Shown here: positions 18,401-31,582 of the stretch, piece after piece
How the letters are laid out: the number at the start of each line of letters is the position of its first letter
Position numbering within the stretch: position 1 is the first letter of the stretch
Assembly: GCF_965227715.1 (NCBI RefSeq)
Contig: NZ_OZ245771.1
Span: 1,246,347 to 1,310,346 of the forward strand
DNA: 64,000 nt
Direction: 5' to 3'
Origin: Aestuariivirga sp.
GTDB lineage: Bacteria > Pseudomonadota > Alphaproteobacteria > Rhizobiales > Aestuariivirgaceae
The notes under the pieces: model-generated
Told to the model about the DNA's origin: nothing
Databases searched by the model: none
What the model saw: the letters and a program-made list of their open reading frames with translations, nothing else
Program-made: the position numbers and the translations under genes

Positions 18401-18433
18401 TATGACAAGGAAGGGGCCAAGCTGAATGTCTGA
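15425..18433 (+). CDS. soxA: Sarcosine oxidase subunit alpha
   Basis: RSFKYHRPRG, KRYTTFGMATDQGK, GcvT-like C-terminus (DASTLGKIEIKG). Confidence 0.97.
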   Translation: MSKPYRLSTGGHLVDRTKKVSFSFDGKTLSGFAGDTVASAVLASGQRVFGRSFKYHRPRGVVGLGSEEMNALLGVGEGARHEPNLRATQVEIFNGLSAVSQNRWPSLNFDVGAINNTFSRFIPGGFYYKTLMWPASFWKHVYEPFIRRAAGLGKAPEGRDPDRYEQIHVHCDVLVIGGGVAGLAAAEAAAASGAKVILADENPRFGGLADISGGTIDGQSLTKWADSKAAALAAAGNVHVLNRTTVVGHWHHNFLMLFERVADHDPALLSQGVPRHRLWKVRAHQVILATGALERPIAFANNDRPGVMLASAARGMVERYGVAPGSSGVVFTNNDDAYQTAIVLKDAGVGVRVVDSRARAEGALPNKAREMGIPVDAGSVISAVNTSWGGLGITDVKVASYRKGQGRVIKETKVACDFVAMSGGWNPALHLWCHNGGKIRFDDTLQSFRPDRHHDKITAIGAANGHFALPQILEEAYGAGSRLSGHGNLHPVPTAVQAEERALEPIWFAPATGKYNEGNKHFIDFQNDVTAADLELAQREGYESVEHTKRYTTFGMATDQGKTSNLNGLGILSEATGKSIPEIGITTFRPPYTPFSFGAIAGNLTKDLFLPIRRTAVYQWHLDHGAVWEPVGQWRRAYTYPRAGEDKHASIDREILSVRNKVGLLDASTLGKIEIKGPDAAEFLDRMYTNMFSSLKVGKCRYGLMMNELGFLSDDGVTVRLGEDHFLMHTTSGGADRIAAWLEEWLQTEWTHYKVFVTPVTEQWSQFAIAGPRARDVLQTLDPDFEISHAALPHMSFVEGKLGPYPVRLFRISFSGELSYEIATPANYGLGLWNAIIAAGAEFGLEPYGTEALHVLRAEKGYIVVGDETDGTTTPIDVGLDGLVSKKKADFIGKRSLEQSFLKGPNRKQLVGLLTEDPNDVLPDGAYAVAQVKDKPPMEMIGQVTSSYKSPTLGRSIAMALIENGRARMGDSISFPLPGGKVIRATITDTVFYDKEGAKLNV

Positions 18434-19028
18434 GCTCTCATACGCTTCGCCGCTGGCCGGGCTTGCACAGCCTCCGGACCTGGCGATTTCCATCCGCGAA
18501 ATCCCGGACCGCGGCATGATCGATCTCCGCGGCCTGGCCACGGATCCTGCCTTCATGTCCGCCGTGCAGGACGTGCTGGGCGTGGCCCTTCCCATCGCCC
18601 CCCGCACATCCGTCAGCTGGGGCGACATCAAGGTCCTCTGGCTCTCGATCGACCAGTGGCTGATCCTCAGCACACGGACGAAAGCGCATGAGCTGCTGGC
18701 CCATCTCAAGGCCGCGCTGGCCGGGATTCATTCCTTGGCCGTCGATGTCTCGGACATGCGCGCCGTGATCCGCCTTGAAGGAGACGGCATCCGCGAGATC
18801 CTGATGAAGGGCACCTCGCTGGACCTGCTCGCCCCCGAATATAAACCCGGCTGCTGCCGCCGGATGCGCTACGCGGAAATTGCCGCCCTGCTGCATGTCG
18901 TGGAGGATGAGGTGTTCGACATCTACGTCTTCCGCTCCTACGCCCACTACACCTGGAGCTTCCTCAGCGCCACGGCGCGGGAGAGCGCCAAGGTGAAGTT
19001 GTTCGGCGCGCAGGATTTGGGGGATTAG
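18426..19028 (+). CDS. soxG: Sarcosine oxidase subunit gamma
   Basis: LWLSIDQWLI, VDVSDMR, IYVFRSYA; last gene of the operon. Confidence 0.92.
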   Translation: MSELSYASPLAGLAQPPDLAISIREIPDRGMIDLRGLATDPAFMSAVQDVLGVALPIAPRTSVSWGDIKVLWLSIDQWLILSTRTKAHELLAHLKAALAGIHSLAVDVSDMRAVIRLEGDGIREILMKGTSLDLLAPEYKPGCCRRMRYAEIAALLHVVEDEVFDIYVFRSYAHYTWSFLSATARESAKVKLFGAQDLGD

Positions 19029-19047: not shown

Positions 19048-19077
19048 TTCACCTTGCCCGGGCTTGACCCGGGCATC
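19048..19077 (+). repeat. REP-type palindromic repeat, copy 1 (left inverted repeat of the GIY-YIG gene)
   Basis: TTCACCTTGCCCGGGCTTGACCCGGGCATC; hairpin TGCCCGGG-cttga-CCCGGGCA followed by CTTTTT, which could terminate sox transcription. Confidence 0.9.
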
Positions 19078-19089
19078 CTTTTTCTCACC

Positions 19090-19377
19090 TCACATCAGCT
19101 GGTCATAGAGATCGATCCACCCCGGATTGTTCTTCTCCACAAGTGGGATCTTCCAAGCACGTGACCAGTGCTTAACGGTCTTCTCGCGCTGCACAGCATC
19201 CATGAACATCGCATATTCCTCGCAGTGCACGCGCATCGTGAGGCCAAATCTGCTGGTGAAACCGTCAAGCAATCCCATACGGTGCTCATAGGCTCTGCGT
19301 GGCAAATCTGTCGTGGATCCGGCATACAGCACACCACGCGCACGGTTGGTCATGATGTAGAAAAAGCCGCTGGGCAT
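19090..19377 (-). CDS. Small stand-alone GIY-YIG nuclease family protein, possibly degenerating
   Basis: FFYIMTN..GVLYAGST..L.RRAYEH..G...FT..F..E....A.QREK..K.W.R.WK..L.EK.NP.W.DL pattern; start placed at ATG 19377 because the longer ORF begins inside the repeat. Confidence 0.85.
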   Translation of the reverse strand: MPSGFFYIMTNRARGVLYAGSTTDLPRRAYEHRMGLLDGFTSRFGLTMRVHCEEYAMFMDAVQREKTVKHWSRAWKIPLVEKNNPGWIDLYDQLM

Positions 19378-19398
19378 AGCGCATGAGGCAATAAAGAA

Positions 19399-19428
19399 GA
19401 TGCCCGGGTCAAGCCCGGGCAAGGTGAA
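19399..19428 (-). repeat. REP-type palindromic repeat, copy 2 (right inverted repeat)
   Basis: Exact reverse complement of 19048-19077 over 30 bp. Confidence 0.9.
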
Positions 19429-19456
19429 AGATAAGAATTATTAACTCTCTTTCCTC

Positions 19457-19490
19457 TCACCATGCCCGGGCTTGACCCGGGCATCCTTTT
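19457..19490 (+). repeat. REP-type palindromic repeat, copy 3
   Basis: TCACCATGCCCGGGCTTGACCCGGGCATCCTTTT, one mismatch in 34 bp versus 19049-19082. Confidence 0.9.
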
Positions 19491-19507: not shown

Positions 19508-20389
19508 CTACTTCACCGTCCCCAACCACCCGAACAGCTTGTCGAATCCCCCGAACGGATAGAGATGCGGGGCGGCAATGCCCAGTTCGGGGCGGGCGTA
19601 GTGGAGCTCTGCCAGCCCCGCCACGAAATCATCCGGCGTGTTGACGCTGAGCAGCTTGGTGATGTTCAGCGCCTGCTTGCGGATGAAGCGCGCGGAATTG
19701 CCCACGCCGCACATGGCTGCATATTTGACCAGCGTCTTGATGGTTGCGGGGCCGGGCACGCCCACATGGATCGGAAGGTCGATCCCTGCGGCGCGGAGCG
19801 TCTTCGCCCAGTCGGCAACCGGCTCCGCCTCGAACAGGAATTGCGTGGCGATAAAGCCCTGGAGGCCATTGGCCTTCAGGTAGGCCTGCTTTTCCTTCAA
19901 GGCATCGAGCAGCACCGCCTCACCCTTGGTCTTGGTGATGTCGGGGTTGCCCTCGGGGTGGCCGGCGATGCCGATCTTCGTCACGCCATTGGCCTGGAAC
20001 ACGCCCGTCTGGAGCAGCTGGATCGCGGCATCATAGGCGCCTATCGGCTCTGCGGCACCGCCGCCCAGCACCAGCATGGTGGTGGCCCCGGCCTCTGCCA
20101 GCGCCTTGATGCGGGCGCGAAGGTCTGCCTCGTCTCTGATGAAGCGGGCTGGCACATGCGGCACGGGATCGAAGCCCGCGGCCTTGAGCTGCCGCACAGC
20201 CTCGATCTGACCGGCAAGATCGGCCGCATCGATCAACGCCACGAAAACCTGGGTCCCGGGCTGAAGCTGTTCCTTGAGCACCGCCAGCTTTTCGATCTGC
20301 TTCGGGGTAATCTCGAGGGAGGCTGCCTTAAGGAAGGCGGCCGTGGCCTGCTTCGGGGTCAGGCTGGTGGGGCTGAGCGGGGCATTCAT
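19508..20389 (-). CDS. metF: Methylenetetrahydrofolate reductase family protein
   Basis: SLEITP, PVPHVPAR, IAGHPEGNP, IATQFLF, HVGVPGPA, HLYPFGG; start trimmed to MNAPLS at 20389. Confidence 0.85.
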   Translation of the reverse strand: MNAPLSPTSLTPKQATAAFLKAASLEITPKQIEKLAVLKEQLQPGTQVFVALIDAADLAGQIEAVRQLKAAGFDPVPHVPARFIRDEADLRARIKALAEAGATTMLVLGGGAAEPIGAYDAAIQLLQTGVFQANGVTKIGIAGHPEGNPDITKTKGEAVLLDALKEKQAYLKANGLQGFIATQFLFEAEPVADWAKTLRAAGIDLPIHVGVPGPATIKTLVKYAAMCGVGNSARFIRKQALNITKLLSVNTPDDFVAGLAELHYARPELGIAAPHLYPFGGFDKLFGWLGTVK

Positions 20390-20454
20390 GGGCAAGGGGC
20401 TCCGGTTTGGGTGGCCGGACATTGCGCCAGCATCTCCTGCCCCGCCCGGATGTT

Positions 20455-20481
20455 TGCGACCCCGCCATAACGAATGCGACC
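20455..20481 (-). promoter_or_regulatory. GGTCGCA direct repeat pair between metF and the GlxA-type regulator
   Basis: TGCGACC at 20455-20461 and 20475-20481 (20-bp period). Confidence 0.4.
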
Positions 20482-20579
20482 GCCGGAAAACGCTTGTGTC
20501 GTTTTCGTCCTGCGGCATGACGCTTCTAGACAAGGCCACAATCTTGCGCAAAAAGGCTTCAAACAGGAGTTCCCGCCCC

Positions 20580-21578
20580 ATGTTCGGCGACCCCCCAAAG
20601 CAGCTGCCGCAGCACCTCGCGGTGATCGTGGTGCCGGAGTTCACCATGATGCCGGTCACCTCGGCCATTGAACCCCTGCGCATCGCAAACCGCCTGTCCG
20701 AGAAGGCGCTTTATAAATGGACGATGCATTCGGTGGACGGCCAGCCGGTCGCGGCCTCGAACGGCATTCTGGCCATGGTCGACGGCGATCTCTCCTCAGT
20801 GCCAGAAAACGCCACGATCCTGATCTGTGCCGGCCTCAACGTGCAGCGCCATACGGACAAACGGCTCATCGCCTGGCTGCGCAAGGTGGCCCGCAAGGGG
20901 GTGAACATCGGTGCCGTCTGCACCGGCGCGCATATCTTGGCTGAAGCGGGGCTGCTGGATGGCTACCGCTGCACCATCCACTGGGAAAACCTCCCCGGCT
21001 TCACCGAGGCCTTTCCGGAAATCGATGCGACGGGCGGCCTCTTCGAGATCGACCGGGACCGTTTCACCAGTGCCGGCGGCACAACGGCGCTGGACATGAT
21101 GCTCACGCTGATCGCCAGCCAGCATGGGCCGGAGCTCGCGTCCGCTGCTGCCGAGGGCATTCTGCATTCGCCCATCCGGCACCACAGCGAACACCAGCGC
21201 ATGTCGCTTCCGGCGCGGATCGGCGCCCGCCACCCCAAGCTCGTCGGCATCATCGAGGAGATGGAGCAGAATCTGGAAGAACCCCTCTCGCCCTCGATCC
21301 TGGCGAAGCAGGCAGGCCTCTCCACACGGCAGCTGGAACGGCTGTTCCGCCGTTACCTGGACCGCAGCCCCAAGCGCTATTACCTGGAGCTTCGTCTCAA
21401 GAAGGCGCGGTCCCTGCTGCTGCAGACGGATATGTCCGTCATCAATGTGGCGCTGGCCTGCGGCTTCTCCTCGCCATCGCATTTCTCGAAGTGCTATCGT
21501 GCCTTTTATGGCCGCACTCCCTACCGCGAACGCGGCATTCCGGTCATTGAAGCTTCCGCCCACGCTGAAACAGTGTAA
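20580..21578 (+). CDS. GlxA/GbdR-family AraC transcriptional regulator (DJ-1-like N-domain)
   Basis: AIEPLRIANR, IGAVCTGAHILA, CTIHWEN, AraC HTH STRQLERLF...ACGFSSPSHFSKCYR; AGGAG SD before ATG 20580. Confidence 0.93.
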   Translation: MFGDPPKQLPQHLAVIVVPEFTMMPVTSAIEPLRIANRLSEKALYKWTMHSVDGQPVAASNGILAMVDGDLSSVPENATILICAGLNVQRHTDKRLIAWLRKVARKGVNIGAVCTGAHILAEAGLLDGYRCTIHWENLPGFTEAFPEIDATGGLFEIDRDRFTSAGGTTALDMMLTLIASQHGPELASAAAEGILHSPIRHHSEHQRMSLPARIGARHPKLVGIIEEMEQNLEEPLSPSILAKQAGLSTRQLERLFRRYLDRSPKRYYLELRLKKARSLLLQTDMSVINVALACGFSSPSHFSKCYRAFYGRTPYRERGIPVIEASAHAETV

Positions 21579-31375: not shown

Positions 31376-31451
31376 GGGTTCTGGATGATGTCGTTTCACT
31401 CCACCTCGCGCAGTCGAGTGAGATCATTGGCAGATTTACACGCTATCTGTT

Positions 31452-31538
31452 CCGTCACCCCAGCGCAGGCTGGGGTCCCGCTTTATGTCAGCATGTGCGG
31501 GACGCAAAGCGGGATGCCAGCCTTCGCTGGCATGACGG
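31452..31538. repeat. Inverted doublet of CGTC-tagged REP elements (REPIN-like)
   Basis: CCGTCACCCCAGCGCAGGCTGGGGTCCCGCTTT (31452-31484) and the reverse complement of CCGTCATGCCAGCGAAGGCTGGCATCCCGCTTT (31506-31538), between convergent genes. Confidence 0.85.
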
Positions 31539-31582
31539 TGCGAGCCTTAAGCTGCCGCTCCAGCACTTGAGGCCCCTGCCCC

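Follow-up and report, generated by a model that had tools for sequence, protein, structure and literature searches.

Single-domain GIY-YIG nucleases of about 94 residues, known as Ssn (CDD cd10448), have been tied to the NTS/SRM repeats by Chenal et al. (2025, Nat Commun 16:2388; PMC11893778), and they form the closest described system to the one considered here. In that work a repeat was found near 71% of Ssn homologues, and 42% were flanked on both sides. Four enzymes, N. meningitidis SsnA and three homologues including one from Wolbachia, bind the hairpin solely as ssDNA and cleave the bound strand upstream of the tag, and the tested members leave dsDNA uncut (PMC11893778). In N. meningitidis SsnA reduces transformation by DNA flanked with NTS, and the authors described an IS-like NTS-ssnA-NTS layout and suggested domestication; mobility was not demonstrated there (PMC11893778). 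In an earlier study of CGTC-type REPs (Di Nocera, De Gregorio & Rocco 2013; PMC3733652) no enzyme gene was linked to the repeats, and ORFs of <120 aa were left out of the intragenic analysis.

We analysed a 64,000-nt stretch of DNA from Aestuariivirga sp., referred to as the window. Positions 19048-19490 are best read as an Ssn-type cassette, in which a single-domain GIY-YIG gene lies between inverted copies of what would be its own cognate hairpin repeat; we put the probability of this reading at about 0.8. The flanking repeat would be an Ssn-related motif in the terms of Chenal et al. and a CGTC-superfamily REP in older usage. A preliminary description of the locus had implied that the pairing of a GIY-YIG gene with CGTC-type repeats was new. 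This is outdated: Chenal et al. had already linked the Ssn family (cd10448) to CGTC-tagged hairpins, as nucleases specific for sites in ssDNA and with no mobilising role demonstrated, and we class the locus as a further Ssn/SRM example of a published pairing. Within the literature collection searched, no paper other than that one links GIY-YIG with REP, REPIN or 'repetitive extragenic palindromic'. The broader suggestion of a REPtron-like unit, with a GIY-YIG enzyme in the RAYT role that may nick the repeats or travel with them, has fared better, and draws support from flank enrichment, clustering on the protein tree, co-occurrence, insertion polymorphism and published biochemistry (PMC11893778).

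The nuclease gene and its flanking repeats

Repeat comparison, together with an ORF and Pfam scan, bears out the initial report of exact inverted 30-bp arms around a lone 95-aa GIY-YIG ORF, accompanied by a third near-identical copy. Each of the arms, 19048-19077 (TTCACCTTGCCCGGGCTTGACCCGGGCATC) and 19399-19428, is the perfect reverse complement of the other along all 30 bp, and at 89% identity their inverted repeat reaches 45 nt; between the third copy (19457-19490) and the first, identity is 97% across 34 nt. A search between the arms for a RAYT or other transposase found none, and the only conserved ORF there is the GIY-YIG gene. The features, in window coordinates, are these:

18426-19028, plus strand: soxG (sarcosine oxidase gamma subunit), the left flank and last gene of the sox cluster; Pfam PF04268, E 3e-20
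19048-19083, plus strand: REP family-A copy 1; R1 covariance model 60 bits, rank 2 of ~46 genome-wide; tag TTCACCT 19048-19054, stem 19055-19062, loop CTTGA 19063-19067, stem 19068-19075, tail TCCTTTTT 19076-19083
19090-19377, minus strand: ssn-like GIY-YIG nuclease gene; PF01541, E 1e-10
19391-19428, minus strand: REP family-A copy 2, exact inverted partner of copy 1; R1 57 bits, rank 4; on the minus strand, tag TTCACCT 19428-19422, stem-loop-stem 19421-19401, tail TCTTCTTTAT
19457-19490, plus strand: REP family-A copy 3; R1 62.5 bits, rank 1 in the genome; tag TCACCA 19457-19462, stem-loop-stem 19463-19483, tail TCCTTTT
19508-20683, minus strand: MTHFR-like gene, the right flank, convergent with soxG; Pfam PF02219, E 3e-7

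As first described, each of the three copies is a hairpin with an unpaired TCACC tag: an 8-bp stem (TGCCCGGG/CCCGGGCA) encloses a CTTGA loop, the 5′ tag reads TCACCT or TCACCA, and a T-rich tail follows on the 3′ side. Copy 1 begins 20 bp past the soxG stop codon and ends 6 bp from that of the nuclease gene, and copy 2 ends 23 bp upstream of the nuclease ATG. Copies 2 and 3 face each other tag to tag, with 28 bp between them, and the MTHFR-like stop codon is 17 bp from copy 3. The cassette ends show no target duplication, again in agreement with the first reading; the outer flanks run ...ccaaccaaca on the left and agataagaat... on the right.

Read from tag to tail, family-A copies conform to the intrinsic-terminator consensus and sit at gene ends; copy 1 is terminator-like on the plus strand and copy 2 on the minus strand. 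On its own strand the nuclease gene follows the MTHFR-like gene. Homologues share its start codon, the ATG at 19377, and neither a Shine-Dalgarno motif, whose absence had been remarked on before, nor a promoter-like site is visible ahead of it (19375-19400) or ahead of the homologue in the congeneric genome G002. With the ATG 23 bp behind a terminator-like repeat and no promoter-like site before it, expression is probably low and probably relies on read-through from the MTHFR-like gene.

The protein (95 aa, MPSGFFYIMTN...DLYDQLM) matches PF01541 over residues 4-76 (E 1e-10), and Pfam finds no second domain. It is the product of the only Ssn-type gene in the genome, where UvrC alone gives another GIY-YIG match by Pfam, tblastn and profile searches. 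Its AF2 model is one compact GIY-YIG domain (pLDDT 93), for which the best structural matches are UPF0213 (1ZG2, 1YWL), Slx1 and the UvrC N-domain, with no nearer solved structure. In sequence the similarity to the UPF0213 structures is weak (E 0.01 to both 1ZG2 and 1YWL), and membership of that family was rejected. The protein matches individual homologues at E 1e-16 to 1e-28, and over its full length it matches, at E 4e-32, a profile of 19 homologues that are flanked by canonical NTS-like repeats with CGTCA tags and GAAG loops; it is also placed in a single tree together with these homologues. A peptide that it carries, LYAGSTTD, is typical of UPF0213-like stand-alone GIY-YIG proteins from distant phyla (CPR, Acidobacteriota, Firmicutes); inverted repeats were sought beside the UPF0213-like loci L091 and L093-L102 and none was found (scores 7-10).

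Deviations in the protein had been taken as a possible sign of decay, a suspicion that the comparison dispels. Six catalytic residues, Y7, Y18, R28, H32, E65 and N84, are kept, in columns 96-100% conserved among 54 homologues; the HCEE stretch recurs in the closest homologue, a G002 protein with 76-77% identity; dN/dS against that homologue is 0.14, at a dS near saturation; and the predicted GIY-YIG fold is confident. We therefore rejected a decaying pseudogene and judge from these comparisons that the gene is intact and under purifying selection. Decay with retention of the repeats does occur in other lineages, since some homologues in alphaproteobacterial MAGs (L080, L086 and L092) are pseudogenes, showing in-frame stops at codon 5 and at PRR*K and a frameshift, that still adjoin their hairpin repeats.

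Two repeat families and their distribution in relatives

The genome of the window (G000) is complete, with 4.40 Mb and 61.7% GC. The genome-wide repeat count proposed in the preliminary description was obtained with R1, a covariance model built from 31 copies, and gave ~44-46 copies of the repeat, which we call family A. The three gene-adjacent copies rank 1, 2 and 4 and, measured over 35 nt against a consensus drawn from 37 other copies, show the fewest mismatches of all (1, 1 and 3); it is copies 1 and 3 that carry a single mismatch each to this independent consensus. Stems vary by compensatory change (98% of cells paired, double changes in 8/8 pairs), a count that is partly circular and not fully independent because some seed copies were collected by a hairpin criterion. 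Tags divide into GTCA (13), TCAC (22) and other (11) among 46 copies. Twelve pairs form inverted doublets with tags outward, 42-47 bp apart and oriented like the cassette arms, and the two arms carry the same tag type in 8/8 scorable pairs. A perfectly palindromic doublet is present at C1:4389648-4389734, with identical arms and a spacer of 9 nt plus the tails; such a structure could stem from fold-back synthesis or from loss of the inside of a cassette. The gene-adjacent copies do not match the literal SRM pattern HGTCWYN(0-2)YYVSBRH..., because their tag is TCACC and the pattern requires HGTCWY; a CGTCA-tagged family-A copy at C1:582322 does match it.

A second, larger family, B, consists of canonical NTS-like repeats. 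In G000 the SRM pattern has 222 matches, where Markov-1 simulations give 28-59, and nearly all the real-looking matches belong to this NTS-like family (CGTCA[TC].CC.GCGAAGGC.GG..TCCCGCTTTG). A family-specific pattern recovers ~262 copies, 112 of them in tags-outward pairs with a modal spacing of 84 bp, and a second model finds at least 150, the scoring cap. Some family-B doublets form BIME-like tandem arrays with periods of ~142-167 bp (C1:264954-265698, 379047-379760, 627437-628340, 762175-762777 and 3980865-3981385). The gene-less doublet at ~31452-31538, to which the orientation of the cassette had originally been likened, is indeed arranged with tags outward; the implied identity of repeat family does not hold, since the segment covering it (31447-31543; G000 C1:1277793-1277889) is family B, with a CGTCA tag and a GAAG-type loop.

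The B-rich congeners G001, G002, G004 and G011 carry B-clade Ssn genes. In G000 neither a B-clade gene nor a pseudogene was found by a genome Pfam scan, by tblastn with 54 homologues or by the family profile run on six-frame ORFs, and a hidden second Ssn gene serving family B was rejected on these grounds. With ~260 family-B repeats present and no B-clade gene, it follows that a repeat family can persist without a cognate nuclease.

Homologues of the window protein occur, often in several copies, in 30 of 41 related genomes; many of these are fragmented assemblies with contigs broken in repeat clusters. Inverted hairpin repeats flank 33 of the 54 homologous loci (score >=20), and among 400 random segments of 290 bp from the window's genome a single one is so flanked (Fisher p 1e-34), so that the enrichment anticipated in the preliminary description is plain. 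Gene ends for this scoring were projected from alignments; ORFs delimited by called codons run into the repeats and yield false negatives. The flanks are tagged hairpins whose sequence is specific to the lineage. Type A has CTTGA- or CTTGT-type loops, and type B has CGTCA(T/C) tags and GAAG-type loops and is nearly identical to the Neisseria NTS. When repeat type is mapped onto the protein tree, 17 changes suffice, compared with a mean of 26.4 after shuffling, and none of 200 shuffles was as low; in this check of co-phylogeny, repeat type tracks the lineage of the protein. Sister to the window protein, with 100/99 support, is the 76-77% identical G002 protein, whose gene is flanked by hairpins with the same TCACCT tag and CTTGA loop and with compensatory changes in the stem (TGCCCCGG/CCGGGGCA). 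Alphaproteobacterial homologues that are further removed (54-60% identity) have CGTCAT-tagged hairpins of the same type, and a CGTCAT tag also marks the sister-lineage cassettes L003, L050 and L080-L082.

Family-A copy number likewise follows the presence of an A-clade gene, as far as model searches indicate. Six genomes with such a gene have 17-145 copies, and 19 genomes without one have 0-16 (exact Mann-Whitney p 5.6e-6, or 2.4e-5 when G000, the genome that trained the family-A model, is left out); the best 150 candidates per genome were scored, and the high counts are lower bounds.

Insertion polymorphism and the role of the nuclease

The soxG/MTHFR-like synteny is conserved across the genus, and the cassette is an indel that stands at different places in congeneric genomes. 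Empty sites, which the preliminary description proposed to look for between soxG and the MTHFR-like gene (there called metF), are present in G006 and G027, where the two stop codons are 11 and 22 bp apart. In G002 the slot (L032, C10) holds a GIY-YIG paralogue of 44% identity flanked by canonical CGTCATCCCGGCGAAGGCCGGGATCCAGC repeats, in a nested arrangement of two family-A-like hairpins around a full family-B cassette (B doublet, paralogue, B doublet); the 76-77% homologue of that genome lies at another locus, where G000 has no insert. In G003 a 62% homologue lies downstream of a gene whose G000 orthologue precedes the gene-less doublet C1:4389648-4389734, and the right flank is not colinear. 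Because the cassette occupies non-orthologous loci in G000, G002 and G003 and the slot is empty elsewhere, it is or was mobile as a unit. Exact junctions or a target duplication were not recoverable from filled and empty sites, which are too diverged, and the G002 contig ends in a repeat cluster.

In other congeners the slot contains unrelated small genes, and it is a hotspot (L039, L043, L045, L049; L034, L036, L038, L040, L042, L044). Some occupants consist of two small minus-strand ORFs, which at a guess are a toxin-antitoxin pair; others comprise one to three small genes whose products start with MKKFAISL..ALAA, a stretch resembling a signal peptide.

Judged by its homology to the four Ssn enzymes studied biochemically, the 95-aa protein most likely leaves dsDNA and RNA alone, and the family-A repeat would most likely be bound solely when single-stranded and folded, with its 5′ tag, 8-bp GC stem and CTTGA loop displayed. 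The cut would most likely be made in that strand, a few nucleotides to the 5′ side of its tag. As the tags point outward, the predicted cuts would lie just beyond each end of the cassette and on opposite strands. Specificity for the repeat is extrapolated here, because these copies differ in the tag, a part reported as critical to binding by Ssn.

It is possible, though we consider it unlikely, that the cassette is an autonomous mobile element in which REP-gene-REP is the master copy and the nuclease drives the spread of family-A repeats and their 42-47-bp doublets in a RAYT/REPIN-like manner, which would extend the preferred reading from binding and cutting to propagation. The shared layout of cassette and doublets (tags outward, tails inward), the consensus-like character of the flanking copies, the matching tags of doublet arms, the agreement of copy number with presence of the A-clade gene and the non-orthologous loci with their empty sites are all in keeping with such an element, as is the G000 doublet that follows the left-flank gene where G003 has the nuclease gene. 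However, GIY-YIG enzymes are hydrolytic, form no covalent intermediate and have no known strand-transfer activity; the predicted cuts on opposite strands are unlike those of IS200/IS605, and there are no target duplications. The ~45 copies, many of them diverged by compensatory changes, give few signs of recent bursts, and family B is six times commoner with no cognate gene. Co-occurrence, moreover, could just as well result if the repeats are substrate marks of the enzyme, or if gene and repeats are passed on jointly. The comparative data show a cassette that moves; with a nuclease that propagates its repeats they are compatible, and they do not amount to proof of it.

It is also possible, though in our view just as unlikely, that the nuclease is a domesticated host function that polices repeat-bearing ssDNA, whether transforming, conjugative, GTA-borne or arising in replication and repair, as proposed for Neisseria SsnA, while the adjacent repeats act mainly in transcriptional control or as terminators. 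The effect of SsnA on transformation by NTS-flanked DNA (PMC11893778) speaks for such a role, as do the single-copy gene under purifying selection, the terminator-like repeats at gene ends and the position of the gene behind two hairpins with no promoter-like site of its own. A mobile cassette is nevertheless the better fit to a slot that is empty or filled with other cargo in most congeners, with the closest homologues elsewhere, and in 11 of the 41 relatives no homologue is present.

Free-standing homing endonucleases of the GIY-YIG type are a familiar class, and a selfish gene of this kind might land in the spacers of pre-existing doublets that are not its own product. The G002 slot, where a family-A pair encloses a complete family-B cassette with its 44% identical paralogue, and the G000 gene-less doublet behind the same left-flank gene that precedes the nuclease gene in G003, could both be explained in this way. 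We regard homing as improbable, however: the agreement of repeat type with protein lineage is unexpected if genes land in any doublet, the window protein is without the DNA-binding domain of homing GIY-YIG enzymes, and the tested family members do not cut dsDNA (PMC11893778). Finally, it is highly improbable that the hairpins simply serve the convergent neighbours as ordinary intrinsic terminators, with a small ORF merely between them, for while the copies do satisfy the terminator consensus and the slot does separate convergent genes, the 30-bp exact identity includes the unpaired tags, the ~45 dispersed copies have a common tag and tail, the flanks in relatives are lineage-specific, and chance is excluded because just 1 of the 400 control segments had a flanking inverted repeat scoring 17 or more.

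Taking the Ssn-type cassette as the preferred reading, we speculate, with considerable doubt, that Ssn nucleases are the propagating enzymes of CGTC-superfamily REPs and that REP-ssn-REP is the minimal autonomous element. Cuts in one strand, 5′ of the tag, would start off the copying of repeats and inverted doublets, for example through repair by fold-back or template switching; enzyme and tag would evolve together, with the shift from CGTCA to TCACC in the G000/G002 lineage as an instance; and family B would be a fossil left after loss of its nuclease. If this were true, what mobilises CGTC REPs, a question dating from 2013, would have its answer in a non-transposase chemistry. The window locus offers a clean natural test case for the question raised by the 2025 paper, whether Ssn nucleases spread repeats: the genome is complete and holds one Ssn gene, one small matching family (~45 copies) and one large canonical family (~260) without a gene, and among congeners the same cassette stands at other loci and a different cassette at the window's locus. 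The changed tag of the gene-adjacent copies would also allow co-evolution of enzyme and repeat, and programmable ssDNA specificity, to be tested directly.

Comparison with known systems

The likeness to the Ssn/NTS system is close. In both, a single-domain GIY-YIG protein of 94-95 aa is encoded between inverted, dispersed hairpins of 20-50 nt with an oriented, unpaired 5′ tag, and protein and repeat co-vary. Set beside the Ssn definition (~94 aa, 150 aa or less, single domain), the window protein has 95 aa, and it retains the two Tyr, Arg, His, Glu and Asn of the catalytic set. The definition also asks for SRM hairpins within 500 bp on both sides of the gene; here tagged hairpins are found on both sides, arranged as in the published cases, with TCACC copies that fall outside the literal SRM pattern. 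The window copies differ from the NTS (CGTCAT...GAAG...ATCYRG) in their TCACC tag, CTTGA loop and T-rich, terminator-like tail. The low copy number of family A (~45), and its coexistence with ~260 canonical NTS-like repeats that have no cognate gene, are further points of difference.

Compared with REPtrons and their RAYTs (Nunvar 2010; Bertels & Rainey 2011, PMC3337134; Ton-Hoang 2012), the locus likewise has a single-copy gene between inverted REPs that are oriented like the gene-less doublets, flanking copies that are consensus-like and match a dispersed family, and a gene/repeat pairing particular to each genome. The enzymes are unlike: the one in the window is a hydrolytic GIY-YIG nuclease, and RAYTs are HUH/Y1 tyrosine transposases related to those of IS200/IS605. 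The tags are CGTC or TCAC here rather than GTAG, and no transposition chemistry is known.

With the CGTC-tagged REP superfamily (PMC3733652) the repeats share their form, being alphaproteobacterial palindromes with an unpaired tag at one end, often arranged as inverted dimers between convergent genes, and the CGTCA tag itself is found on family B and on 13/46 family-A copies. Here, unlike there, an associated gene is evident, and the gene-adjacent copies carry a TCACC variant of the tag. The UPF0213/YhbQ-type and Slx1 proteins (1ZG2, 1YWL, 6SEH) resemble the window protein in fold and size, provide its best structural matches and have an LYAGSTTD-like motif. They differ in their weak sequence similarity (E 0.01) and are not reported with flanking repeats, and the window protein has an Ssn-type C-terminal half (REKTVKHW.RAWK..L.E..NP.W.DLY).
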